NCBI GenBank assembly: GCA_043801535.1
Contig: JAZDLZ010000765.1
Location: 1 to 34,456, forward strand
Length of the DNA: 34,456 nt
Origin: Pseudomonadota bacterium
Lineage (GTDB): Bacteria > Myxococcota_A > Polyangia > Haliangiales > SHYZ01
Reading direction: 5' to 3'
The position numbers and the translations under genes are program-made. Below, one piece after another: positions 222-21,557 of this stretch (position 1 is the stretch's first letter; each line of letters starts with the position of its first letter). The notes under the pieces are model-generated. The model ran no database searches. It was given only the letters and a program-made list of their open reading frames with translations, and was not told the origin of the DNA.

Positions 222-683
222 ATGGGGTATCAAGCCAAAATCCAATCGTCGGCCGTCTGCGACCAATCGGCCCTCGGTGGATGTGTGGGCGCGATTACAG
301 TTTTTCGGTGCAGAGAACTCGGATGTCAATTCCACATCAAACGCTGTACGGTCCATTCGGGAAAGCGAATAGGTAGCGCATTCGCGGCGCACGCAAAAAT
401 CGCCCACCCGCGCAAGTACCGGGCTCTGCGGACTCGACGGGCAGTGCGGATAGGTCAGCGCAACGCTCCGCGAGTGCCAGTGCCGCAGACCATGCATCAG
501 TGTCGACGATGCGGACTGTCGATCCGATACCCGAAGCTCAATCAGCACCTCTGGGATGCTCACGGGATAGCCGAGGAGGCACGCCTGGCGGTGACACACT
601 TTGTGTCGGAGTCGTCGGAGCAGACTGTGTCGACTACTCCGACGAAGACATCGCAGAGCTGCGACGACAGCGACCTCGAGTGA
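222..683 (+). CDS. Small Cys/His-rich (C2H2-like zinc-finger) protein with an acidic Ser/Thr-rich tail
   Basis: CRRCGLSIRYPKLNQHLWDAH fits C-x2-C-x11-H-x4-H. There is also an upstream Cys/His-rich stretch, FRCRELGCQFHIKRCTVH...AAHAKIAH. By hand count, GC3 is about 73% for 492-683 and about 60% for 222-491, so the start could be ATG 492 instead of ATG 222. The stop TGA 681-683 overlaps GTG 680 of the next ORF. Confidence 0.45.
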   Translation: MGYQAKIQSSAVCDQSALGGCVGAITVFRCRELGCQFHIKRCTVHSGKRIGSAFAAHAKIAHPRKYRALRTRRAVRIGQRNAPRVPVPQTMHQCRRCGLSIRYPKLNQHLWDAHGIAEEARLAVTHFVSESSEQTVSTTPTKTSQSCDDSDLE

Positions 684-958
684 GAGGCGATTGCGAAAGC
701 GGAGCCAGACCATGTCCGTGGGTGGGCTGCCGGTATCACCTCTACCTGCACGTCACTGCCGCCGGGGCACTGCGGATCGAGTACCCCGACCGCGACCCCG
801 ACGAGATACCAGAGACCTGTGTTCTCGACGTGGCCGAGCATGACTTCCTCACTTTCGACGACATCGGACGATTCCTCGGCGTGACCAGCGGCCGGATTCA
901 ACAGATTGAGGCGAGTGCGCTGCGGAAAATGAAACGAAAAATGAAGGAGCCACAATGA
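680..958 (+). CDS. Sigma-70 region-4-type helix-turn-helix DNA-binding protein with an N-terminal Cys/His cluster
   Basis: The C-terminus ETCVLDVAEHDFLTFDDIGRFLGVTSGRIQQIEASALRKMK matches the region 4.2 HTH pattern, preceded by CESGARPCPWVGCRYHL. A GTG 680 start is chosen because the longer 500-679 extension has only about 51% GC3. The stop TGA 956-958 overlaps the effector ATG 955 (ATGA). Confidence 0.6.
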   Translation: MRGDCESGARPCPWVGCRYHLYLHVTAAGALRIEYPDRDPDEIPETCVLDVAEHDFLTFDDIGRFLGVTSGRIQQIEASALRKMKRKMKEPQ

Positions 959-2790
959 TCGACGAACGAAGCAAACGAGTCTACGCCTATGGCTGTCGTG
1001 CTCCCATGGCAGGGAGCGAGGCGTTCGAGGCGCAGCTACGACTCGCGCACAATTACTACAATCGTTTGATCGAAATCGAAAGGACTCGACGGGAAAAGTA
1101 TCATGAATTGTGCGGTCGGTATCAGGAGGTCGTCGAGGTCGACGCGGCACTGACGGCGGTCAACGCGGCGCTCGACATGATCTATGGAGTAATCGCTGCC
1201 TCGAAAATGAAAGGACGCAGTCGGAAGGCTGTCGATCCGCAGAATACCGTCGAGGCTAAGCGACTCCAGCAACAACGGAGGTTTTTGTACGATCGACGGA
1301 AAAAGGCCGAGTCTGCGGCGAAGAAAAATCACCCGGAGCTGATGCTCGAGCTGGAGCAGATGCAGCTCCAGACTCGGATGTTCGTGAAGTCGGCAAGAGG
1401 AGAGTATTCCGCCAAAGGGCTTTACTGGGGAACCTATCTGATCATCGAGCAGGCATACGAGCTCGCGAAGAAATCACACGGACCGCCACATTTCCGTCGA
1501 TGGGACGGCACGGGACAAATCGCAGTGCAAATTCAGCATGGCAAGCCCGTCGAAGAAATCATTGGCGGTGCTGATGGCCGGCTGCAAATCGATGCTATTG
1601 ATTCGGCAGCATGGAGTGGCTCTCGCGGCGAGCGCCGGCGAGCGACTCGGACGATGGTCAGAATTCGTGCGCACAGCGATGACAAGAAGGATCCCGTCTG
1701 GGTGGAGCTGCCCGTTGTGTTGCATCGTCCGATGCCGGCGGGAGGTCGCATTTGGTGGGCGCGGTTGTGTCGCAAGCGTGTGGCCGGGACGTTTGAGTAC
1801 GAGCTTCAGATCACGGTGGATATCCCAATCCCGTCGGTGGAAGTCGATCCTCGAACGGCAGTCGGAGTCGATTTGGGATGGCGGCGCAGAGACGACGGAA
1901 TCCGTGTGCTGACCTGGCAGTGGCAAGATGGCCGGCGTGGGGAGCTACGCTGTGATACCATGACCGAGGCTACGATGGCTCATGCACAATCGTTGCAGTC
2001 GATCCGCGGCAAGAATCTCGATGCTATGCGTGCTGGCATGGTCGAGTGGATGCGTGGACATCCATTGCCCGAGTGGATGACGGAATCGACGGATACATTC
2101 GGGTTGTGGCGGTCTCCAGGAAGATTTGCAGCACTGGCGATCCGCTGGCGAAACCTGCGATTCGACGGAGATGCGGAGGGGTTCGATCTGCTCGAAGCAT
2201 GGCGCAAGCAGGACCGGCATCTTTGGGAGTGGCAATCTCACGAGGTGCAAAAGGCTATTCTTCGACGGAGAGAGCAGTATCGGGTTTGGGCACGGGGTAT
2301 CGTGAGACAGTCGTCTTTGATCGCCATCGAAGATTTCGATTTGCGCCAGATGGCGCGGCAGACTCCGCCGGAGGAGCCGGGGAAGTACGATGATCTGGCG
2401 CGTGCTCAGCGTATCGTGACAGCTCCGAGCACAGCACGCCAGGCGCTTGAGCAAGCGGCAGCGTCGGCAGGAGTGCCAGTGATCAAGGTGCCCTGCCCTG
2501 GGACGACGTACATCTGCCGGGAGTGCGGGTGTGCCTGCGAGTGGGATCAGGCGCGCGAGATCAGACATACCTGCGAGGGCTGCGGGCGAGAGTGGGACCA
2601 GGATGAGAACGCCGCGACGAATATTTTACGAGCGGGTCAGGGATACGTGGCATCAGGCAAGCTGCTCGCAGACCAGATCGCGAAGAAAAACAAAGCATTG
2701 CGAGGAGGGAGATTCCAGCGACGTGCTGCGGCAAAGGTAGAAGTGGTGATCGCTCGAAAAGCTCTCGACACGTCGAGTGAAATCGGATAG
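955..2790 (+). CDS. cas12: Miniature type V CRISPR effector (TnpB/Cas12-family RuvC nuclease, 611 aa); subtype unresolved (Cas12f/Cas12m-like size)
   Basis: RuvC-I is VGVDLGW (D306, nt 1870-1872). RuvC-II is SLIAIEDFD (E459, nt 2329-2331). RuvC-III is WDQDENAATNIL (D550, nt 2602-2604). A CxxC...CxxC zinc ribbon (YICRECGCACEW...HTCEGCGREW; C521/C524/C540/C543) sits between RuvC-II and RuvC-III. The N-terminus is TnpB-like (KRVYAYGCRAP...LRLAHNYYNRLIEIER). AAGGAG lies at 944-949. A CRISPR array starts 14 nt downstream. Confidence 0.85.
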   Translation: MIDERSKRVYAYGCRAPMAGSEAFEAQLRLAHNYYNRLIEIERTRREKYHELCGRYQEVVEVDAALTAVNAALDMIYGVIAASKMKGRSRKAVDPQNTVEAKRLQQQRRFLYDRRKKAESAAKKNHPELMLELEQMQLQTRMFVKSARGEYSAKGLYWGTYLIIEQAYELAKKSHGPPHFRRWDGTGQIAVQIQHGKPVEEIIGGADGRLQIDAIDSAAWSGSRGERRRATRTMVRIRAHSDDKKDPVWVELPVVLHRPMPAGGRIWWARLCRKRVAGTFEYELQITVDIPIPSVEVDPRTAVGVDLGWRRRDDGIRVLTWQWQDGRRGELRCDTMTEATMAHAQSLQSIRGKNLDAMRAGMVEWMRGHPLPEWMTESTDTFGLWRSPGRFAALAIRWRNLRFDGDAEGFDLLEAWRKQDRHLWEWQSHEVQKAILRRREQYRVWARGIVRQSSLIAIEDFDLRQMARQTPPEEPGKYDDLARAQRIVTAPSTARQALEQAAASAGVPVIKVPCPGTTYICRECGCACEWDQAREIRHTCEGCGREWDQDENAATNILRAGQGYVASGKLLADQIAKKNKALRGGRFQRRAAAKVEVVIARKALDTSSEIG

Positions 2791-2804
2791 ATAGAGAGTG
2801 CGCA

Positions 2805-3571
2805 GTAGCAAAGGCTGCTCGGAGCCTTCGTGTCCGAGACAGCGAGTAGCAAATCCGGCGGGGCCTGATATGCGTGTAGCAAAGGCTGCTCGGAGCCTTC
2901 GTGTCCGAGACGGTGTACCGGGCCGTATGCCGTGCGCTGGCCGACCGAGCGTAGCAAAGGCTGCTCGGAGCCTTCGTGTCCGAGACCTAGTTCCTTGTTC
3001 AATTCCGACGACGACGAAGGGGTAGCAAAGGCTGCTCGGAGCCTTCGTGTCCGAGACATATGCAATCCGTGCAGGACGATCGAGGTGAATCGTGTAGCAA
3101 AGGCTGCTCGGAGCCTTCGTGTCCGAGACGCAGCAACGGAGCGAGGCGTCGCGATCGCGCACACCAGTAGCAAAGGCTGCTCGGAGCCTTCGTGTCCGAG
3201 ACGCGAGCAACAGATCCGGCGGGGCCTGATATGCGTAGGTAGTAGCAAAGGCTGCTCGGAGCCTTCGTGTCCGAGACAGCGACCCGAAGACCGGGATGGT
3301 TTTCGACATCCCGACCGTAGCAAAGGCTGCTCGGAGCCTTCGTGTCCGAGACCGGTGCGCGAGTATCACGCATCGCCACCAGATGATGAGTAGCAAAGGC
3401 TGCTCGGAGCCTTCGTGTCCGAGACGGCATCAGCCACGAGGCCGCCCGCAAGCGATTCCAGGTAGCAAAGGCTGCTCGGAGCCTTGGTGTCCGAGACTGT
3501 GGTCGTTCCGCCGTCCGTCCATCCAAGCGGTCCCCGTAGCAAAGGCTGCTCGGAGCCTTCGTGTCCGAGAC
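2805..3571 (+). CRISPR. CRISPR array: 11 x 36-bp repeat GTAGCAAAGGCTGCTCGGAGCCTTCGTGTCCGAGAC with 10 spacers of 35-39 bp
   Basis: Repeats start at 2805, 2876, 2951, 3022, 3094, 3167, 3242, 3317, 3390, 3462 and 3536. Ten repeats are identical; repeat 10 has C25G (CCTTGGTGT). Spacer lengths are 35, 39, 35, 36, 37, 39, 39, 37, 36 and 38 nt. Flanking bases vary, so the repeat boundaries are exact. The + orientation is inferred from the position of the variant repeat and of a 9-nt remnant (GTCCGAGAC, 3582-3590) at the right end, and from co-orientation with cas12. Confidence 0.97.
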
Positions 3572-3630
3572 GGATGAGCACGTCCGAGACCCCGTCGAGA
3601 GTAGACCAAGCGGGGTGGTAGAGTACGACC

Positions 3631-4377
3631 ATGATTTCTTGCATTTGCTGCACATCTGCCTCCCGCGCATGGTGCCTTCCGCTCGCCATCCGCGCCTTCA
3701 GCCGCCAGACCTACGCAGCGTGGGACCGTGAGTTGGTCATCGTCACCGATGGCACCGACGCAGACCGAGACATCGTCGCTGCAATCGCCAGCGGTCATCC
3801 GGGCGTCGAGCACTATCACATCCCATCCAAGCCAGGCGCTACCCGACGGATCACCCTCGGAGAGAAACGCAACCTGGCCATCGTGCATGCCCGCGGCGAT
3901 TGGCTCTGCCATTGGGATGACGACGATTGGCATTCCCCCGACCGACTCACCCGGGCGATCAAGGAGCTGGCGTTGCAAGGAGCTCGAGCCGCTGGCATGA
4001 CCTCGTTGCTGTTCCACGAGCTCACGGGAGACCGGCGGACGTTCCGCTATCGCTACAGCGGCAAGCCTTACCTCGTGGGCGGAACCATGCTTTATCATCG
4101 CAATGACTGGCGGGACATCCGATTTCCCCGCAGGCAGGAGGGCGAGGATTCCGTCTTCGCCTTCGAGCTCTGTCGACGGGTAACCGTGGCCATCGTCGAC
4201 GACCTCAGTCACTACGTGGCGCTGCGGCACGGGAATAACACGTCGCATCGAGGGCAGACGAATCCTCGGCCGCCCAAGTGGGTGCAGTGGGAGGGCGATA
4301 TCCGGAGTATCATGGGGCAGGATCTCGACGAATACGAAAGGGCATTGCATGGGAGCCGCGAAAACCAAGAGCGATGA
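3631..4377 (+). CDS. Family 2 (GT-A fold) glycosyltransferase
   Basis: ISCICCTSASRAWCLPLAIRAFSRQTYAAWDRELVIVTDGTDAD resembles the GT2 N-terminal signature. An acidic HWDDDDW motif (DxD-like) is present. 248 aa. Confidence 0.65.
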   Translation: MISCICCTSASRAWCLPLAIRAFSRQTYAAWDRELVIVTDGTDADRDIVAAIASGHPGVEHYHIPSKPGATRRITLGEKRNLAIVHARGDWLCHWDDDDWHSPDRLTRAIKELALQGARAAGMTSLLFHELTGDRRTFRYRYSGKPYLVGGTMLYHRNDWRDIRFPRRQEGEDSVFAFELCRRVTVAIVDDLSHYVALRHGNNTSHRGQTNPRPPKWVQWEGDIRSIMGQDLDEYERALHGSRENQER

Positions 4378-5014
4378 GCGCAAGATTCGCATCGAGTACA
4401 TGCCACTGTCACAAGTCGTGCGAGCGCCGCGCAATCCGCGCTGGCATGCGGACAAGGACATTCAGGCGAGCATCGAGGCGTTTGGCTACGTCCAGCCAGC
4501 AATTCTCGATGAGAGAACGGGCAAGCTGGTGGCAGGCCACGGCAGACTGGATGCGTTGCTGGCCATGAAGCAGGAAGGCAAGCCGCCGCCTCCAGGAATC
4601 GCAGTCACTCCCGACGACTGGAAGCTCCCAGTCATTCGTGGCGTCTCGTTCCGCACGCAGGAGGAGGCCGAGGCCTTCTTGCTCGCCGACAATCAGACGA
4701 CTGTTTTAGGCGGGTGGCACGACGACAAGCTGGCAGCCATCCTCAAGGATCTCCAAGCGTCCGACCAGGCAATCATCGGATGGGCACAGGAAGAAGTTGA
4801 TGTTTTGCTGGGTGCGGACCTCGAGCTAGAAATTCCAACACTAGACGACCCATCACCCGACGATGGGTTGCGCGAGTACAAGTTTCGCGTTTCCGAGGAG
4901 GAGACAGCCACCGTCGATCGTGCGTTTGTCGCGCAACGCGGAAAGCGACGGGAAGCTGATGATGCCAGGCTATTCGTCGCCATCTGTCGGGCTTTTCTGA
5001 AACTGCCGGAATGA
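4349..5014 (+). CDS. ParB/Srx-fold (ParB-like nuclease domain) protein
   Basis: IRIEYMPLSQVVRAPRNPRWH ... KLVAGHGRLDAL matches ParB N-terminal domain motifs (NPR, GHxR). It overlaps the GT2 3' end by 29 nt. The start is uncertain (ATG 4400 is an alternative). Confidence 0.6.
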   Translation: MGAAKTKSDERKIRIEYMPLSQVVRAPRNPRWHADKDIQASIEAFGYVQPAILDERTGKLVAGHGRLDALLAMKQEGKPPPPGIAVTPDDWKLPVIRGVSFRTQEEAEAFLLADNQTTVLGGWHDDKLAAILKDLQASDQAIIGWAQEEVDVLLGADLELEIPTLDDPSPDDGLREYKFRVSEEETATVDRAFVAQRGKRREADDARLFVAICRAFLKLPE

Positions 5015-6555
5015 CTCCGATGGAAGCCGGCATCATTACGTTTGGTCATGCCAACAGTCACGGCAAGAATCAAGTCAAAAACGAGCTGGGGCAGGGCCCG
5101 CACATCGTGCGTCAGTGCTGCCTCGAGGCTGGTATTTCTGTCCACAATTTGCACGAGCGATGGCATCGGTGTGATGTCGTTATGGTCGGACTCTACTGGT
5201 GGGAGCATCTCTACGACCTGGTGCTCTGGCTCGCTGCGCATGGAATCGAGCCGGATCGAGAGAAGCGACGGAAGGCAGGCGGTCCGCTCGTATTCATCGG
5301 TGGACAACTGCCCAGCTACAACCCATCCACTGTGGCTGCTATCGCTGATCTGGTGTGCATCGGCGATGGCGAATCGGCTGCGCCAGCAGTGCTATCCCTG
5401 ATTCGCGCCGGCGCTCCTCCATCAGAGTGGGCAAGCGTGCCAGGCATCTACGTATCCGAGCTCGACAATTGCGCAGAGTGGCAGCATGTCGACGATGTCT
5501 CAGGCACGATTCGCTGGCCATTCTACAATTCGACGCTGGTCGAGCATGACAGCGGGGTCCATCAGAAGCTCGTCTTCGAGCGACGAATTGAGATAGCCCG
5601 TGGCTGTCGGCACAAGTGTGCCTACTGCGGAGTCGGGTGGACAAAACGCTACCGTGAGGTGTCGACCGCGGAAATCTGCGGGGCAGTCGCGAGCACGCCA
5701 GGGATGATCAAGGCCTTCGCGCCAGACCCTCTGGCGCATTCTGGCTGGGATGAAATCGACGCTACGTTTGTCGAGTATGACAAGAGCAACCAGGCACGGG
5801 ATATCTCGGCTCATACAATTCTGACCAAGGGATTCGGTCGTTCGAGGATTTACACCACTGGCATCGACGGGCTGTCCGAGAGACTTCGACGAGCAGTGAA
5901 CAAACGGCTGTCGCAAGATGAGCTTGTCGAGGTACTAGAGCGGACATCCGGGCATGGCGGACAACTCATGATCTACATGATTCTTGATTTGCCAGGCGAA
6001 ACAGAGGCTGACTATCGTGAGTGGTTCGCGTCCTTGTCGCGGGTGCAGGTCCGTACCCGGCCCCCGAGTGGTAGATTTGCTTCAGGCGACGAACGCGATT
6101 TCTACGTCGCTATGACGCTCACTGCGTTCAATCCGACGCCTCACACTCCATTGCAATGGGAAGGCATCGACATCCACAAGCAGTGCTACGATTGGTATCG
6201 ACAAGCATTGGACGTGGGACTCGTCGACAAGAGTCAGCGACGGCTCAAGCACAAGATACTCGGCCGTCCGCATGGAGGCGCTGCACGACTGCTCGAGGCG
6301 GCCGCCCTCCGCGGGGACAGAGAGCTCGGTCGGTTTGTCTTGCGAGTCGCTGCTGTTCGACATCGGTTCAAGACATCGTCGCAGGTTCTGACTGCCGCTG
6401 ACAGACTGGGCGTGGGCGAGGCCTTGCACAACACCGTGAGGCGTCATTCTCTCGACGAGACCTTGCCCTGGGAAAGACGAGTCCGCCCGCTGTTCGGGCG
6501 TGACACGCTGCAACGGGCGGCTCTCAAGTTCCGCAACATCGTCGGACAGCTATAG
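5011..6555 (+). CDS. Radical SAM enzyme with an N-terminal B12-binding-like domain
   Basis: IARGCRHKCAYCGVGW contains the CxxxCxxC 4Fe-4S motif. The N-terminal VFIGGQLPSYNP...VCIGDGESA resembles the Rossmann-like B12-binding domain of class B radical SAM enzymes. ATGA overlap with the previous ORF at 5011-5014. Confidence 0.7.
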   Translation: MTPMEAGIITFGHANSHGKNQVKNELGQGPHIVRQCCLEAGISVHNLHERWHRCDVVMVGLYWWEHLYDLVLWLAAHGIEPDREKRRKAGGPLVFIGGQLPSYNPSTVAAIADLVCIGDGESAAPAVLSLIRAGAPPSEWASVPGIYVSELDNCAEWQHVDDVSGTIRWPFYNSTLVEHDSGVHQKLVFERRIEIARGCRHKCAYCGVGWTKRYREVSTAEICGAVASTPGMIKAFAPDPLAHSGWDEIDATFVEYDKSNQARDISAHTILTKGFGRSRIYTTGIDGLSERLRRAVNKRLSQDELVEVLERTSGHGGQLMIYMILDLPGETEADYREWFASLSRVQVRTRPPSGRFASGDERDFYVAMTLTAFNPTPHTPLQWEGIDIHKQCYDWYRQALDVGLVDKSQRRLKHKILGRPHGGAARLLEAAALRGDRELGRFVLRVAAVRHRFKTSSQVLTAADRLGVGEALHNTVRRHSLDETLPWERRVRPLFGRDTLQRAALKFRNIVGQL

Positions 6556-11548: not shown

Positions 11549-11863
11549 ATGCCAATCAGCTCGTCGGAGATTGCTCAACGTGTGGGCGTCTCGGTCCGCT
11601 ACCTCAACAAGCTTGTCCGTTGCGGATTGGTGCAGCCGTCGAAACAGTCACGCAAGCAGGGTTCGCCTGCGGAATGGGCGGAAGAGGACGTGGCCAAGGT
11701 CGTGCTCGCCGTGCGCATCAAGCGGGTGTTGAATCGGTTTTCCAAGGTGCGTCTTGATGCTTCGGTGTTGGAAGATTTGGACGACCGAGCAATTGCAGTC
11801 GGGGAGCAGTTTCTTCGAGAGCTCGACGGTCAATCAAAGATAGTCATCCCACAGGAGTCATGA
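11549..11863 (+). CDS. MerR-type HTH protein
   Basis: ISSSEIAQRVGVSVRYLNKLVRCGLVQP fits the MerR N-terminal winged-HTH pattern. 104 aa. Confidence 0.5.
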   Translation: MPISSSEIAQRVGVSVRYLNKLVRCGLVQPSKQSRKQGSPAEWAEEDVAKVVLAVRIKRVLNRFSKVRLDASVLEDLDDRAIAVGEQFLRELDGQSKIVIPQES

Positions 11864-12840
11864 TGGTCATCGCATACGTCGGCAACTTCGAGGCTCGTAC
11901 TCCAAGTGGTGAGTTGTTCTCGACGGAATCTCACCTGTCCGCATCGCTCGAGCAACTCGGGCATACCGTCGTGCGGCTCCAGGAAAATCGTGTCACCGCA
12001 GAGCAGGTGGCGTTTCGCGTCCGCGAGTGCGCGGCGGATCTTTTTCTGTGGACGAAGACCGGGGAATGGCTGCGTGGCGACCGCGAGGAGATGCTGCGAG
12101 TCATCAAATGTCCAACGGTAGCATATCATCTGGATCTTTACGCTGGGCTCCCGCGGTCGGCTAACGTGGACAGTGAGCCATGGTGGCGGTGCAAGTACGT
12201 GTTCACTGCCGACGGCGGCAGCGATGACTTCTGGCGTGAGCATCGGATCAATCACTACTGGGCGCCACCAGGAGTCTACGGCAAGGAGTGCTATCTCGCA
12301 GAGCCGGGACCCGAGCGATACGATGTCATCTTCGTAGGCTCCGGGAAAAACGGATACCATCCGGAATGGCCATACCGCAAGCAGCTCCTCGACTGGCTAG
12401 CCAACACCTACGGAGAGCGATTCGTCCTCTTCGGGCGCGGCGGTGAGCTGGAGTGCGTGCGCGGGGCAGCGCTCAATCAACTCTACGCGAGCGCGAAGGT
12501 GGTCGTCGGAGATTCGCTGTGCCTAGGATTCCAGCACCGACGGTACTGGAGCGATCGGGTGCCAGAGACGCTCGGGCGGGGAGGCTTTCTCATCCATCCG
12601 GCAGTCTCGGGGCTCGAGCAGTTTTTCCGCAATCGTGAGCATCTGGTCACCTACGACTATGGCGATTTCGACGGACTCAAGCAGACGATCGACTACTACC
12701 TAGCTCACGACGAGGAGCGTGAGACTATCCGGTTAGTCGGTCACGAGGAAGTGAAGTCGCGGCACACTTACGCCAATCGTATGGCGTGGATGCTCGAGAC
12801 AGTGCGGCGGTCGGAGACCAGGGTCGACGTGATGCTATGA
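11860..12840 (+). CDS. CgeB-like / Glyco_trans_1_2-type glycosyltransferase
   Basis: VIFVGSGKNGYHPEWPYRKQLLDWL...LYASAKVVVGDS...RVPETLGRGGFLIHP...DYYLAHDEERETI...SRHTYANRM follows the CgeB-family C-terminal pattern. AGGAG lies at 11853-11857 and there is an ATGA overlap. Confidence 0.65.
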   Translation: MMVIAYVGNFEARTPSGELFSTESHLSASLEQLGHTVVRLQENRVTAEQVAFRVRECAADLFLWTKTGEWLRGDREEMLRVIKCPTVAYHLDLYAGLPRSANVDSEPWWRCKYVFTADGGSDDFWREHRINHYWAPPGVYGKECYLAEPGPERYDVIFVGSGKNGYHPEWPYRKQLLDWLANTYGERFVLFGRGGELECVRGAALNQLYASAKVVVGDSLCLGFQHRRYWSDRVPETLGRGGFLIHPAVSGLEQFFRNREHLVTYDYGDFDGLKQTIDYYLAHDEERETIRLVGHEEVKSRHTYANRMAWMLETVRRSETRVDVML

Positions 12841-13634
12841 GAGATTTTCGGCCGACATCAGCGAAGGCGGAATGGCATCTCACGTATCGTTGCACCTTGC
12901 GGTGCAATGGATGCAGTCGGGCTACGTGGCTGGCGAAGCCGCACACGGAGGACATGACGCTCGACGATGCCCGTGAATGGTGCAAGCAGGCCGACGAGAT
13001 TGGATGGAAGCGTTTTCAGCCCACGAAGGAGAACGCTCGAATCATCCTCATCGGTGGCGAGCCGACGGTGCATCCGGATTTCATGGAGTTCGTGCAGCTC
13101 GCTATGGAGTGGTCGGGCGCGTATGTCCAAGTCTATTCCAATGGGTGGTCAGCCCAGACAAGGGCTCTGCTCGAGCACGCCAGGATTCATCACAGCGCGT
13201 CGATCGAACGGAGTAACGCGAAGCCACGAGGTAGCGTGACTGGCCCAGAGTGGGCTGGCTGGCGGCTAGACATGTACGTCAGCCCAGCAGACGCTGGGGT
13301 ACCAAGTCCTCCGTGCTATGTCCATCCGTCGGAAATCTGCGGGCTCGGAATCGATCACGAAGGATATTCGATGTGTCCAATCGGAGCGTCGGTGCGGGCA
13401 TTGCTGGGATTACCGCGGACACGACGATTCGCCGATCTGTTCGACATCGACCTTGCCGCGCGCATGACCGCGGAGGAGTGCTCGCATTGCGGATACGAGT
13501 ATGCCAAGCGTGCGGCGTCCAATGAGCACAAGGAGAGATTTGCGGCTTATGTCGCGCAGTGTCCGACGATGCAGGGGTGTTTGATGTCTCCGACGTGGCA
13601 GTCGGTTTTCCAAGGACGTGAGGTCAAGAAATGA
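12837..13634 (+). CDS. Radical SAM enzyme (possible SPASM/twitch-like Cys-rich C-terminus)
   Basis: HLTYRCTLRCNGC contains CxxxCxxC, followed by IILIGGEPTVHPDF. The C-terminal cysteines are CYVHPSEICG...SMCP...CSHCG. ATGA overlap at 12837-12840. Confidence 0.75.
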   Translation: MRDFRPTSAKAEWHLTYRCTLRCNGCSRATWLAKPHTEDMTLDDAREWCKQADEIGWKRFQPTKENARIILIGGEPTVHPDFMEFVQLAMEWSGAYVQVYSNGWSAQTRALLEHARIHHSASIERSNAKPRGSVTGPEWAGWRLDMYVSPADAGVPSPPCYVHPSEICGLGIDHEGYSMCPIGASVRALLGLPRTRRFADLFDIDLAARMTAEECSHCGYEYAKRAASNEHKERFAAYVAQCPTMQGCLMSPTWQSVFQGREVKK

Positions 13635-14359
13635 AGCGCATCACAATGGCAGGATTCTCGACGATGATTCCAGACCATCGTGCCGACTGGGATGGATGGG
13701 CGGAATGGGAGCGGGTTCGCTTCGAGTCGATGGCGCACAACCTCATCAAAGATGATGTTCTCTACGACGTGGGCGCTGAGTACGGAGACATGTCAGCGAT
13801 TTACGCTCAGATGGCAGGCAGCCTGTGTCTCTTCGAGTCGGAACCGGCGGTGTGGCGCAATATTCGCCATGTCTGGGATGCTTCCGGGTTACAGCCTCCG
13901 CGAGCTTGTTACGTTGGTCTTGTCGGAGAGCAGACCACAGACCCGGTTGCACAGGACTTCGACGGGCGGATCCGTGCCGGCTGGCCAGAGTGCGCGTGGG
14001 TAGACAGTATTTGGCCAGATTGGACGTTTCGCTATTTGCATTACGCATCTCATGTAGCTTCGACGCCGCAGACTCGCCTTGATGACTGGGCGGATCGGTC
14101 GGGCATCTTACCGACAGTGATCACGATGGATATCGAGGGCGCAGAGCTACTGGCGTTGCGCGGTGCTAGCCGGCTGCTCGAGCAATACCATCCGATGGTG
14201 TACGTATCCATCCATCCCGATGCGATGGAGCGGGACTACCATCAGAGCGATGCCGATCTGCATGCGTACATGCGAGATCTGGGGTATGCCGGCACGCATC
14301 TAGGCACTGATCACGAGCAGCACTGGGCGTTCACCGCAGGTGGGAGGCCGCTCAGGTGA
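13631..14359 (+). CDS. FkbM-family SAM-dependent methyltransferase
   Basis: VLYDVGAEYGDMSAIYA...LFESEP and ITMDIEGAELLALRGASRLL...VYVSIHP match Methyltransf_21/FkbM motifs. ATGA overlap. Confidence 0.7.
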   Translation: MKRITMAGFSTMIPDHRADWDGWAEWERVRFESMAHNLIKDDVLYDVGAEYGDMSAIYAQMAGSLCLFESEPAVWRNIRHVWDASGLQPPRACYVGLVGEQTTDPVAQDFDGRIRAGWPECAWVDSIWPDWTFRYLHYASHVASTPQTRLDDWADRSGILPTVITMDIEGAELLALRGASRLLEQYHPMVYVSIHPDAMERDYHQSDADLHAYMRDLGYAGTHLGTDHEQHWAFTAGGRPLR

Positions 14360-16074
14360 CCCGAGTGCTCTGGCCATGGGCGGCCTGCAATCATTGGGAC
14401 CAGGCCATGCTGCGCGATTTGTTCGCCGGTCGTCTCTGGCCGATGGCAGAGCCTTTCGTCGATGAGATGGAGCCGACGCGAGGCGGCGAAGGCGCAGTGG
14501 TGGTCTGCTCCGGGGCGTTGCTGGCAGAGCGAGGAGATCAGGAGTTGCGCGCTTTGCTCGGGGTGTTGCCATGGGCGATTTTCGTCCACACCAGCGACGA
14601 AGTGATGCTGTTCGATTCGTCGAAGTTGGCTCGAGAAGCGCGGGTGAAGGTCTGGTGCCAGACACCTCGATTCGATCGTAATTACAGCGACCGCAAGCTG
14701 CTCATTGGATGGCCGCCTGCCACGCGGGATATCGTCGAGAGATTGCCACGGTTGCCGTTGGCAGATCGTCCGTTACTGTGGGCGTTCCAAGGTCAGAGCA
14801 ATCACGTTCATCGGCAGCGCATGGTCGACGTGTTGGGCAAGCGTAATGACGGGCGACTGGTCGTCACGGGGGGATTCGCTCAGGGCAAGCCGAGACCGGA
14901 ATACCTGGCCGATCTGGGGCAGGCTCGCATTGTGCCGTGTCCGTCGGGGCTGTGGACGCCAGACAGCTTCCGCATGGCCGAGGCGCTCGAGGCAGGCTGT
15001 TTGCCCTGCGTCGAACGCAGGTCTCCGCAGTGGAAGGGAGGCGGCAACTTTTGGCAGTTTGCGTTGAACACGCAACCAATGCCTTGCGTCAAGGACTGGA
15101 CCGAATTACCGCGGATCCTTGACGGATACCGAAGCAATCCTGTTGCGTTGCAGCGAGATGCCAATCGAGCTGCGGCATGGTGGCTGGGCTACAAGCGTCA
15201 GCTAGCGTGCAACTTGCTCGACGATGTCGAGACGCTATCTGGCAAGCCACCAGAGCCATTGCACCAGGTGACAGTGTTGATGCCGACCAGTTCCATACCG
15301 TCGCACCCATCCACTGCTTTTATCGAAGATGCGATTACCAGGCTGCGGGCATATCCAGAGATGGCCAATGCCGAGGTCATCATCATGGTCGACGGGTTGC
15401 ACGCCAGCCATCGTTTCCGATCTGCTGACTACGAGGAGTACAAGCGTCGGCTGATCGACCTCTGCTCATGGGATCCGAGATTCCGTGGTTGCCTGCCACT
15501 CGTGTTCGACGAGCACACGCATCAAGCCAACATGACGCGCCTGGCGCTCGAGCTTGTGCGGACTCCCCTCGTGTTTTTCCAGGAGCATGATACCTGGCCG
15601 TGTTGGGACATCGACTGGGTTGGCTTGAAGCGGGCATTCTGGGTTGGTCGTGGCGTGAACATGATCACGCTGCATATCGACCATCAAGTGCTCGACGAGC
15701 ACAAGTATCTCACGTTGGGTGACGTCGAAGACATCAACGGAGTGCCGTTGTTACGTCATTGCAAGTGGAGCCAGCGCCCGCATATGGCTAGTACGTCGTG
15801 GTATCGCGGAATCCTCGCTGAGTTTTTCGGCAGGAACGCGCGTACCATGATCGAAGACGTCATGTGGGGTATAGTTTCGACGAGAGTGCAGGCAGACAAG
15901 GCAGCGTGGGGGAGATTTGGGTTGTGGATGTATCACCCCGACGATTCTGTGCATGGTGTTTTGCGTAGTCAAACCAGAGATGGCCGAGCGGGCGAGGCAA
16001 AGGTTCCGCTCGTCATTGCCTACGACGGAATGCCTCCGGAATGTGCGCCTGTCCCGGGAGTCAAGCGATGGTAG
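14356..16074 (+). CDS. Two-domain putative glycosyltransferase (exostosin/GT47-like N-terminal half, GT-A-like C-terminal half)
   Basis: LLWAFQGQSNHVHRQRMV...ARIVPCPSGLWTPDSFRMAEALEAGCLPCV resembles the exostosin-type pattern. VTVLMPTSSIPSHPSTAFIEDAITRL...EVIIMVDG resembles a GT-A N-terminus. GTGA overlap. Confidence 0.5.
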   Translation: MTRVLWPWAACNHWDQAMLRDLFAGRLWPMAEPFVDEMEPTRGGEGAVVVCSGALLAERGDQELRALLGVLPWAIFVHTSDEVMLFDSSKLAREARVKVWCQTPRFDRNYSDRKLLIGWPPATRDIVERLPRLPLADRPLLWAFQGQSNHVHRQRMVDVLGKRNDGRLVVTGGFAQGKPRPEYLADLGQARIVPCPSGLWTPDSFRMAEALEAGCLPCVERRSPQWKGGGNFWQFALNTQPMPCVKDWTELPRILDGYRSNPVALQRDANRAAAWWLGYKRQLACNLLDDVETLSGKPPEPLHQVTVLMPTSSIPSHPSTAFIEDAITRLRAYPEMANAEVIIMVDGLHASHRFRSADYEEYKRRLIDLCSWDPRFRGCLPLVFDEHTHQANMTRLALELVRTPLVFFQEHDTWPCWDIDWVGLKRAFWVGRGVNMITLHIDHQVLDEHKYLTLGDVEDINGVPLLRHCKWSQRPHMASTSWYRGILAEFFGRNARTMIEDVMWGIVSTRVQADKAAWGRFGLWMYHPDDSVHGVLRSQTRDGRAGEAKVPLVIAYDGMPPECAPVPGVKRW

Positions 16075-16288
16075 CGGATCTGGCGCGGTGGGCGAAGGTA
16101 GCGACTGAGCCGTCGCCATGGACAAAACGGATAAATCCACTGCGACTTTCGGTATCGATCCGTTGACACGCAGCTTCGGACGGACTCGGACGGACGACCG
16201 AGCCGTCGGACATCGTGAGTGGCGCATGTCGTTACAAGCGGCCGGGGCTCGAGGGAATCAAAAAACGTCTACGGGAGGCTTTCCTTCG

Positions 16289-17173
16289 ATGAAGATCGTG
16301 TTGGTGTCGAATGACAATGGTCGCGGGTTGAGTCGAGACCTCGCCATCGTGTCAGACCTGGCACGTCGTGCGGGGCATTCCGTGCGTGCCGTCAATTTTA
16401 AAATCATCGATCCTGCGTTGCGCGGTGACTTAGTCATTTGTTTGGAAACAGCGCCCATGAAAGCGCTGGCGGTAGCGCTGGTGCGCTGGTGCGTGCCCAA
16501 TCCTGAATGGTGGCCACAGGCGATGCCGGTGCAGGCCTTCGACCGGATCCTGTGCAAAACCCACGAATCGTTGCGGTTATTCGAGGCTATCACTGACAAG
16601 GCTGAGCTAGTCGGATTCACCGCCCGAGACCGGTACATCGCAGACGTACCGCGAGAGCGCGCCTTCCTGCACGTCGCGGGCAAATCGATCATGAAGGGCA
16701 CGGATGCCATCCTCGCTGCCTGGAAGCAGTTCCATATCGATCAACCATTGACCATAGTCAGCTCGTCGAGATTCAAGGAATCAATCCCGGGCGTCAGATA
16801 CCTCGATTGGCTCGACGATGCAGCACTCAAATCAGAGCAAAATCGCAACCTCTTCTACCTGGCGCCCTCGCAGACCGAAGGCTACGGGCACTCTCTGCAC
16901 GAGGCGGCGTCGTGCGGGGCAGTCATTGCCCGCAGCGAATGGTCACCGATGGATGAGGTCCCTGGCGTGTCCATGCACGCGGAGGCAGGCCGGCCAATGC
17001 GGCTAGCTCGGACATGTCGCGTTTCGTCAGGTGCGATTCGAGATGCCGTCGAGAGCTGCCTAGCCATGGACGGCGGACAAATCGTCGCTCTGCGAGCCAA
17101 GACTCGTGAGAGCTACGTTCGAGAACGCGCCGCCTTCGAGTCTCGATTTCTCCACCTGCTAGCGACTATCTGA
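16289..17173 (+). CDS. GT-B fold (GT4/GT1-like) glycosyltransferase
   Basis: The MKIVLVSND start is preceded by GGGAGG (16274-16279). FLHVAGKSIMKGTD... and PSQTEGYGHSLHEAASCGAVI match the E-x7-E-type GT-B C-terminal motif. The longest ORF starts at 16118, but that extension has low GC3 (about 56% by hand count). Confidence 0.7.
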   Translation: MKIVLVSNDNGRGLSRDLAIVSDLARRAGHSVRAVNFKIIDPALRGDLVICLETAPMKALAVALVRWCVPNPEWWPQAMPVQAFDRILCKTHESLRLFEAITDKAELVGFTARDRYIADVPRERAFLHVAGKSIMKGTDAILAAWKQFHIDQPLTIVSSSRFKESIPGVRYLDWLDDAALKSEQNRNLFYLAPSQTEGYGHSLHEAASCGAVIARSEWSPMDEVPGVSMHAEAGRPMRLARTCRVSSGAIRDAVESCLAMDGGQIVALRAKTRESYVRERAAFESRFLHLLATI

Positions 17174-21002: not shown

Positions 21003-21545
21003 ATGCCGACGATGACCCAGATCAATGCTGCTCTGCGTGCCTGGGTCGAGACTGCGCTCGTCGGCACCGACGCTGCCGGTCGAACCATTTTTAACCGGCA
21101 GGGGAAGCCTCGACCAGAGCGACCCTACGCGGACATCAGCATTGATTCGATTCGCGCGGTTGGCCAAGACGAGCGACGACCGATAGATGACGACGGAGAC
21201 CGTGGTGTGGTCGGCACTCGCATTGCCGCGGTTACGGTGCAGACGTATGGAGCGGATGCACTGGGGCTCGCCGAGACGATCCGTTCAGCGCTATCGCTGA
21301 AAACGGTGTTGACTGCTCTCCGGGCAGAGGAGTTGGTCTTCCTTGCGTCGGAGTCCGTGCAGGACATCACTGCTCTGCTTGCTACGGACTACGAAGAGCG
21401 CGCGACCTTCGAGGCGCGGTTTGCTTTCGTGTCCGACCAGACCGAGAACGTCGGCTGGATTGAGGCTGTCGAGGGTTCGTACGAATACGAAGACATCGAC
21501 GGAACGACAGCCCTGGATGGGACTTTTTCCGTCGACATCAGCTAG
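21003..21545 (+). CDS. Tail terminator / neck protein
   Basis: It lies directly upstream of the sheath gene. N-terminus INAALRAWVETAL...RPERPYADISIDSIRAVGQDE. The call is positional. Confidence 0.4.
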   Translation: MPTMTQINAALRAWVETALVGTDAAGRTIFNRQGKPRPERPYADISIDSIRAVGQDERRPIDDDGDRGVVGTRIAAVTVQTYGADALGLAETIRSALSLKTVLTALRAEELVFLASESVQDITALLATDYEERATFEARFAFVSDQTENVGWIEAVEGSYEYEDIDGTTALDGTFSVDIS

Positions 21546-21557
21546 GAGGCCGAGGAC

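Follow-up and report, generated by a model that had tools for sequence, protein, structure and literature searches.

A compact type V CRISPR-Cas (clusters of regularly interspaced short palindromic repeats and associated protein) locus is carried by contig JAZDLZ010000765.1, a 34.5-kb contig of an NCBI metagenome-assembled genome labelled 'Pseudomonadota bacterium', which was analysed over its entire length and is hereafter called the window. The locus consists of a gene for a 611-aa effector and an adjoining CRISPR array, and the contig is part of a contractile-tailed phage (Caudoviricetes). By sequence and by predicted fold, the effector is a full-length Cas12m, subtype V-M (formerly V-U1). 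The best explanation of the locus is a phage-borne V-M system in which Cas12m, guided by CRISPR RNA (crRNA), probably silences its targets by binding DNA that it leaves uncut. The locus is a divergent V-M example whose setting is known from earlier cases and demonstrably recurrent, and it represents neither a new lineage nor a new mechanism. The original prediction of a single-effector type V system on a phage contig was confirmed for the gene, the array and the phage genes alike, whereas its view that the subtype could not be assigned by eye, and that the effector might belong to a separate TnpB-to-Cas12 lineage, gave way to V-M/Cas12m in the profile, PDB and Foldseek searches. The features of the locus are as follows.

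944..949, + strand: Shine-Dalgarno sequence AAGGAG, 5 nt ahead of the cas12m start codon (read from sequence)
955..2790, + strand: cas12m, V-M effector gene, 611 aa, ATG start, TAG stop at 2788-2790 (profile, PDB and model)
nt 1870-1872, + strand: cas12m RuvC-I, D306 in VGVDLGW (family column alignment)
nt 2329-2331, + strand: cas12m RuvC-II, E459 in SLIAIEDFD (family column alignment)
nt 2515-2583, + strand: cas12m zinc ribbon, C521-x2-C524 ... C540-x2-C543, between RuvC-II and RuvC-III
nt 2602-2604, + strand: cas12m RuvC-III, D550 in WDQDENAATNIL (family column alignment)
2791..2804, + strand: 14-nt junction between the cas12m stop codon and the first repeat (sequence)
2805..3571, + strand: CRISPR array, 11 copies of the 36-nt repeat GTAGCAAAGGCTGCTCGGAGCCTTCGTGTCCGAGAC and 10 spacers of 35-39 nt
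+ strand: spacers S1 2841-2875, S2 2912-2950, S3 2987-3021, S4 3058-3093, S5 3130-3166
+ strand: spacers S6 3203-3241, S7 3278-3316, S8 3353-3389, S9 3426-3461, S10 3498-3535
3582..3590, + strand: copy of the repeat's last 9 nt (GTCCGAGAC), 10 nt past the terminal repeat

The effector matched the PADLOC Cas12u1 profile with an E-value of 4.1e-120, residues 8-562 aligning with positions 4-531 of the 533 profile positions. The top five matches in a PDB sequence search were all Cas12m chains (3e-82 to 8e-32, over residues ~6-564), including Cas12m 23vw (3e-82); Cas12m2 matched at 5e-38 and GoCas12m 8pm4 at 1.5e-37. TnpB-type and Cas12f chains scored 6e-6 or weaker and aligned with the C-terminal RuvC/zinc-ribbon core only, and no CasPhi chain was among the PDB sequence matches. 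Matches to Pfam PF07282 (5e-11) and NCBIfam guided_TnpB (4e-15) were confined to the C-terminal third, and the NCBIfam scores of 55.9 bits for guided_TnpB (cut-off 100) and 29.4 for Cas12f2 (cut-off 450) likewise came from the C-terminal part only. The effector also matched PADLOC PDLC01692, named 'Cas12f/CAS-V-F', at 4e-123, but the length and coverage of this model equal those of the Cas12u1 model, and the V-F label was therefore rejected as a naming legacy.

An AlphaFold2 model of the effector, built from 31 homologues, had a predicted local distance difference test score (pLDDT) of 89.2 and a predicted template-modelling score (pTM) of 0.81, and it displays the bilobed Cas12m fold WED-REC1-WED-RuvC-REC2-RuvC-TNB-RuvC. 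The top four Foldseek matches to this model, 8hhl, 8hio, 8pm4 and 8hhm, are all cryo-electron microscopy (cryo-EM) structures of Cas12m2 and GoCas12m, aligned over ~605 columns with template-modelling (TM) scores to Cas12m structures of 0.72-0.76 (0.65-0.76 by query length and 0.76-0.77 by target length). Beyond Cas12m the scores fell sharply, to at most 0.41 for Cas12f/TnpB and 0.23-0.25 for Cas12j/CasPhi. Among 5.8 billion database clusters of proteins, none exceeds 45% identity to the effector, which is about 24% identical to the solved HDD-type Cas12m structures.

Compared with the characterised proteins MmCas12m2, GoCas12m, MsCas12m and PmCas12m (Wu et al. 2022; PMC10442227; PMC11013384), the effector is alike in its length of ~600 aa, in sequence and fold over the full length, and in the order RuvC-I, RuvC-II, zinc ribbon, RuvC-III. 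The locus shares with theirs a 36-nt repeat whose 5' handle contains a stem and a pseudoknot and ends in ...AC, an array directly downstream, carriage by a mobile element, and the lack of both a trans-activating crRNA (tracrRNA) and adaptation genes in view. It differs in that its triad is D-E-D, as in clades 3/4, and not HDD or NDD, and in lying on a contig of tailed-phage structural genes instead of a plasmid or chromosome. In the scheme quoted in PMC10442227, Cas12m is divided by triad into four clades (1, HEK/HQK; 2, HDD; 3, DED/NED; 4, DED/DND/NED), and the D-E-D residues of the window protein are compatible with clade 3 or 4.

MvCas12m from myxophage MV-1, billed as the first phage Cas12m in a preprint of September 2026, is a 610-aa protein with a D-E-D triad (D305/E463/D555) that is encoded next to an array with 8 spacers, without cas1, cas2 or cas4 and without a tracrRNA (bioRxiv 10.64898/2026.09.14.751636). 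Compared by description only, the two proteins are nearly equal in size (611 versus 610 aa), have near-identical triad positions and belong to phage-borne V-M systems, whereas they come from different contigs (MV-1 is GCA_020854145) and the window has 10 spacers against the 8 of MV-1.

The window locus also resembles the Cas12j/CasPhi systems (V-J) of huge phages in being a phage-encoded, compact single-effector system without an adaptation module, presumably serving competition between mobile genetic elements (MGEs), and probably in processing its own crRNA, but the TM scores of 0.23-0.25 place the two in different lineages. Cas12j proteins are 700-800 aa long and are active nucleases in which RuvC carries out crRNA processing as well as DNA cutting; the expectation that the 611-aa effector is smaller than Cas12j was correct. 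With Cas12f (V-F) and TnpB, the effector has a RuvC and zinc-ribbon (TNB) core in common. Those proteins are ~400-530 aa long, are without the REC2 insertion, need long tracrRNA or omega-RNA scaffolds and cut DNA. The low TM scores (at most 0.41), the NCBIfam scores below cut-off and the absence of an anti-repeat from the window place the effector outside the Cas12f/TnpB families.

The array extends from the first repeat at 2805-2840 to the last at 3536-3571 with a repeat spacing of 71-75 nt, and its previously reported coordinates, 14 nt after the stop codon, as well as its 11 repeats of 36 bp and spacers of 35-39 bp, were exact, a regularity that cannot be chance. Repeat 10 has a single substitution, and the other ten copies are identical. 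No further copy or anti-repeat of the 36-nt repeat was found on either strand of the window at up to 9 mismatches, which argues for a true array and against the dispersed REP-type or transposon-end element that had been named as a possibility. The fragment at 3582-3590 is probably the remnant of a decayed terminal repeat. The 14-nt junction leaves no space for a leader or promoter of the array's own. Transcription of the array is therefore probably shared with cas12m or starts from a promoter inside the 3' end of cas12m; a promoter/terminator scan detected no consensus element near the junction.

To characterise the repeat, 16 distinct 36-nt repeats taken from arrays adjoining cas12m relatives were aligned. 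The window repeat contains a stem, AAGGCT/AGCCTT, at positions 7-12/19-24 and a pseudoknot, CTCGG/CCGAG, at positions 14-18/30-34. Across the 16 repeats, 86.9% of the cells of these two helices pair, compared with 66.6% in column shuffles (0 of 500 reached the observed value) and at most 48% when the partners were slid. Pairing is complete (100% of cells) in the pseudoknot helix, with compensatory changes in four of its five pairs (for example CTCGG/CCGAG, CGCAT/ATGCG and CGGAA/TTCCG). Ten G-U cells would be A-C mismatches if the opposite strand were RNA, suggesting that the + strand is the RNA strand. Counted from the spacer, the helices occupy positions -30 to -25/-18 to -13 and -23 to -19/-7 to -3, followed by A(-2)C(-1), and the same helix spans are seen in the PmCas12m and Cas12m2 cryo-EM structures (bioRxiv 10.64898/2026.03.26.714355; PMC10442227). 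As a predicted RNA, the repeat carries the Cas12m crRNA handle, a stem plus a pseudoknot, on the + strand. The absence of an anti-repeat from the window fits the tracrRNA-independent mode of Cas12m, and no Rfam family matched the window. Degenerate repeats occur in arrays beside two cas12m relatives (L010 2404-3047 and L003 7479-8144), in which both pseudoknot arms co-vary inside one array, for example GCGTGAC/GTCACGAC versus GCTCGAC/GTCGAG; this co-variation suggests selection on structure even as the repeats diverge.

The 10 spacers had been described as all unique, which does not hold for S1 and S6. These two are alleles of one protospacer with a 1-nt offset, and they differ at 3 of 34 aligned positions, all at spacer positions 6-11 and within the ~17-nt guide/seed region used by Cas12m. 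The pair suggests that the target escaped by seed mutation and that a matching spacer was then added, a pattern from which selection on the array would follow. The three differences all fall in an octamer that makes S1 there a copy of the repeat's first 8 nt (GTAGCAAA); chance, gene conversion or a target resembling a repeat boundary may account for this likeness.

The rest of the window consists, as predicted, of phage genes on the same strand as the locus, and the contractile-tail hallmark set was found among them. The + strand encodes TerL, portal, head morphogenesis, capsid, sheath, tape measure and baseplate proteins (PHROG: TerL 6e-85, portal 2e-80, sheath 5e-73, tape measure 1e-44, baseplate 3e-43; Pfam Phage_cap_E), and the window contains no tRNA and no cellular housekeeping genes. 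TerL is at most 33% identical to that of GenBank phages and at most 36% to that of IMG/VR contigs. The phage has no close relative at these identities, and neither synteny nor a host can therefore be inferred. The 36-nt repeat had no exact copy in IMG/VR. The locus sits between an accessory block preceding the terminase and, on its upstream side, the open reading frame (ORF) listed next.

500..958, + strand: upstream ORF, C-terminal sigma-70 region-4 helix-turn-helix, true start uncertain (Pfam, PHROG)

This ORF matched Pfam Sigma70_r4 (1.2e-6) and the PHROG sigma factor family (7e-5), and its stop codon overlaps the ATG of cas12m (ATGA). The neighbour may be a regulator of the cas12m locus or a phage regulator. 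A conserved sigma-factor partner, as in dCas12f-sigma systems, was considered and rejected, as the small genes that precede cas12m in related loci are homologous neither to ORF 500-958 nor to one another. An alternative ORF at 222-683, which overlaps ORF 500-958, had no family match.

The layout of the locus recurs in other phages. When IMG/VR was searched with one conserved peptide pattern, Cas12m relatives came up at 30 loci, distributed over 29 viral contigs 13-193 kb long; most of these relatives are full length, with 23-43% identity. About 25 of the loci have an array whose start lies ~100-200 nt downstream, and the repeats are in most cases 36 nt long and end in GAC. Virus Rctr197k (GenBank KX853510.1, 197 kb, Caudoviricetes) carries, within 110803-114219 of the record, an unrecognised Cas12m homologue of 34% identity annotated as 'similar to transposase' and, immediately behind it, an annotated CRISPR region of 1.5 kb. 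Its 36-nt repeat, CTCACAAGAGAAGCTCAGATCTTTGGGTTCTGAGAC, shares the stem and pseudoknot layout of the window repeat. The neighbourhoods of closer homologues contain phage tail, lysozyme, integrase and nucleotide-metabolism genes, and one is the context of a conjugative element. Moreover, a search of species-representative genomes, built on 13 closer sequences, found near-full-length relatives with at most 40% identity in more than 10 phyla, one of them on a plasmid; this patchy spread across phyla is the pattern of an MGE-borne gene. V-M systems thus recur in ordinary-size and large phages, not on plasmids only, and are common phage cargo. The rarity implied by the original prediction is not borne out, given the IMG/VR contigs, Rctr197k and myxophage MV-1, and the IMG/VR loci together with Rctr197k contradict the preprint claim of MV-1 as the first phage Cas12m.

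The D306/E459/D550 triad and the four zinc cysteines are intact, and the motifs and the zinc ribbon, all placed as originally predicted, align with conserved RuvC/zinc-ribbon columns of the family. That the D-E-D triad is intact was correct; that cleavage is plausible on this basis is not supported, since the D-E-D orthologues tested bind but do not cut (PMC11013384). The Cas12m orthologues tested by Bigelyte et al. comprise four D-E-D, two H-D-D and two N-D-D proteins, all of which bind double-stranded DNA (dsDNA) flanked by a protospacer adjacent motif (PAM) and leave it uncut, yet block plasmids and phage (PMC11013384). When the HDD site of Cas12m2 was changed to DED, cleavage did not return (PMC10442227), and V-M is classed as interference by transcription block (PMC12669027). 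Of the relatives collected here, 17 of the 27 proteins from viral contigs and 11 of the 16 from genome contigs have D-E-D, and relatives that keep an array have repeatedly lost the triad (DKD, NED, NDD, HMD, HDD, DND, DRD). This repeated loss, while the gene-plus-array layout persists, suggests a function independent of the nuclease site. Binding of dsDNA without cutting, and crRNA-guided silencing thereby, is the most likely mechanism; the Cas12m-like binding-only behaviour that had been raised as a possibility thus becomes the main answer, through the V-M assignment and the tested orthologues.

On the model of the characterised Cas12m enzymes, cas12m and the array would be transcribed together, and Cas12m itself would trim the pre-crRNA, in a Mg-dependent and RuvC-independent manner, to crRNAs of ~50-60 nt. 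Each crRNA would combine a repeat-derived pseudoknotted 5' handle with a guide taken from a spacer's first ~17-20 nt. To our knowledge, the mechanism of crRNA self-processing has not yet been worked out even for model Cas12m enzymes. The complex would then recognise a 5' PAM, which is T- or C-rich in known members, on a dsDNA target and stay bound without cutting, so that transcription or replication of the target would be blocked. The targets would most likely be competing phages or plasmids sharing the host, and the role of the locus would be their exclusion or silencing, with S1 and S6 following two seed variants of one target in a course of escape and counter-escape.

Several points weigh against silencing by a non-cutting Cas12m without its own adaptation module. 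The canonical triad and the four zinc cysteines are kept in most relatives (26-28 of 31; 28 of 43), and the predominance of D-E-D hints at a catalytic role that may have been retained. With identities of at most 45% overall and ~24% to HDD-type structures, the biochemistry of the window protein is extrapolated with uncertainty. The 137 ORFs of at least 85 aa on both strands of the window contained no match to Cas1, Cas2 or Cas4, the Cas12m ORF giving the sole cas matches, which upholds the predicted absence of cas1, cas2 and cas4 for the window, and none was found in eight Pfam-annotated homologue neighbourhoods, 10 kb on each side, in agreement with published descriptions of V-U/V-M loci. However, the contig has no terminal repeat and is a fragment, with just 954 nt upstream of cas12m; adaptation genes may lie elsewhere in the phage, and their absence holds for the 34 kb window.

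Furthermore, no protospacer was found in any collection searched, so that no PAM or target class could be derived. A blastn search of the whole array against 50,697 GenBank phages and 72,556 plasmids (PLSDB) returned noise only, with E-values of at least 0.7, and a 34-nt match to a Rhodobacteraceae repB gene was rejected, as it spans a spacer-repeat boundary. Exact-match searches covered S1/S6, S3, S4, S7 and S8: 22-23-mers of the S1/S6 core had no match in IMG/VR, JGI metagenomes or GTDB genomes, those of S3, S4 and S7 had none in IMG/VR, and S8 had none in metagenomes. Comparisons of the 10 spacers with 76 fetched loci, and of 104 related-array spacers with the window, gave short chance matches only. 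For the MV-1 array, likewise, its authors found no protospacers (bioRxiv 10.64898/2026.09.14.751636).

The retained residues bear on the alternative that phage Cas12m is an active RNA-guided nuclease or nickase whose intact RuvC cuts competing DNA, as in Cas12f or Cas12j. The intact triad and zinc ribbon, the invariance of D548 and D550 in 31 of 31 relatives and the majority state of D-E-D in viral and genomic relatives alike are consistent with such an enzyme, but it is unlikely in view of the four D-E-D orthologues that showed no dsDNA nuclease activity when tested (PMC11013384), the failure of the HDD to DED change in Cas12m2 to regain cleavage (PMC10442227) and the repeated loss of the triad in relatives that keep their arrays. 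The closest PDB match, 23vw, in which D-E-D is kept in the alignment, was moreover deposited as a 'DNA-binding protein'. That the D-E-D Cas12m proteins predominating on contigs of phages and other MGEs form a functionally distinct branch, with RuvC-dependent nicking, cleavage or collateral cutting of single-stranded DNA under conditions other than those tried so far and with array renewal without a Cas1-Cas2 of their own, appears rather unlikely. The S1/S6 pair hints at ongoing spacer turnover of this kind, perhaps through a borrowed host adaptation module or inter-array recombination. If true, the locus would be a phage weapon that differs mechanistically from the characterised binding-only Cas12m.

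A binding-only Cas12m could also serve host takeover or self-regulation, its crRNAs steering it as a programmable repressor, in infection or lysogeny, to promoters of the host chromosome or resident prophages or, through partial matches, to the phage's own genes, and not as a weapon against competitors. Cas12m acts naturally as a roadblock to transcription (PMC11013384). Its gene shows translational coupling to the helix-turn-helix/sigma-r4 ORF and is oriented like the structural genes, and the first 18 nt of S9 match 21534-21551, just upstream of the sheath gene start, with 3 mismatches. We nevertheless consider this role doubtful: the S9 match is at chance level (0.4 expected with shuffled guides, 1 seen), and no full spacer matches the window at up to 8 mismatches, for which self-targeting and autoregulation were rejected. 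The S1/S6 core also had no exact match in 185,579 species-representative genomes, which is a weak test. It is highly improbable that the locus is a decaying passenger, such as a TnpB/IS605-type relic or a disused array carried into the phage. None of the spacers could be given a target, PHROGs and GenBank label such proteins 'transposase', and a decayed repeat fragment lies past the array; yet the 611-aa ORF is unbroken, follows a strong ribosome-binding site and keeps every residue that is invariant in the family, 10 of the 11 repeats are identical, and the Cas12m match is full length and includes the REC domains that TnpB lacks. In addition, the gene-plus-array layout is kept in ~25 viral loci, and no insertion sequence ends or TnpA were found.

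Silencing by binding of uncut DNA is preferred, and the locus supports the view that CRISPR systems which neither cut nor have an adaptation module are favoured by mobile elements in their mutual competition. The locus opens no new mechanism and settles no open question. Base and epigenome editing draw on this family, to which the locus adds a compact, divergent D-E-D Cas12m whose 36-nt repeat is defined; the natural diversity of PAM and binding strength in Cas12m is valuable for these uses.

Two further gene blocks of the window encode putative modification enzymes. Right after the array, the block at 3631-6555 encodes a family-2 glycosyltransferase, a protein with a ParB-like N-terminal domain, which also matches methyltransferase-associated models, and a B12-binding-type radical-SAM protein; it may be a DNA/virion modification or anti-defence cassette. 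The block at 11860-17170, which encodes glycosyltransferases, a radical-SAM protein (12786-13634), an FkbM-type methyltransferase and a 572-aa protein without matches, is inserted between the head-morphogenesis and capsid genes, an unusual site for modification enzymes. ORF 12786-13634 was considered as a viperin and rejected, the PADLOC 'pVip' match being limited to the generic radical-SAM core.

Two of the related loci have unusual surroundings. On a 44-kb contig of JGI 3300062814 (L077 4951-11746), a cas12m relative lies beside divergent Csf3 and PAPS reductase matches that resemble a type IV-B module, and the element also carries an integrase, a serine recombinase and a lysozyme. This one mobile element may bear, side by side, two CRISPR systems that do not cut. 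The 153-kb contig IMGVR_UViG_3300032770_000005 (L016, L032) carries two full-length cas12m genes ~48 kb apart, only one of them with a clear downstream array.

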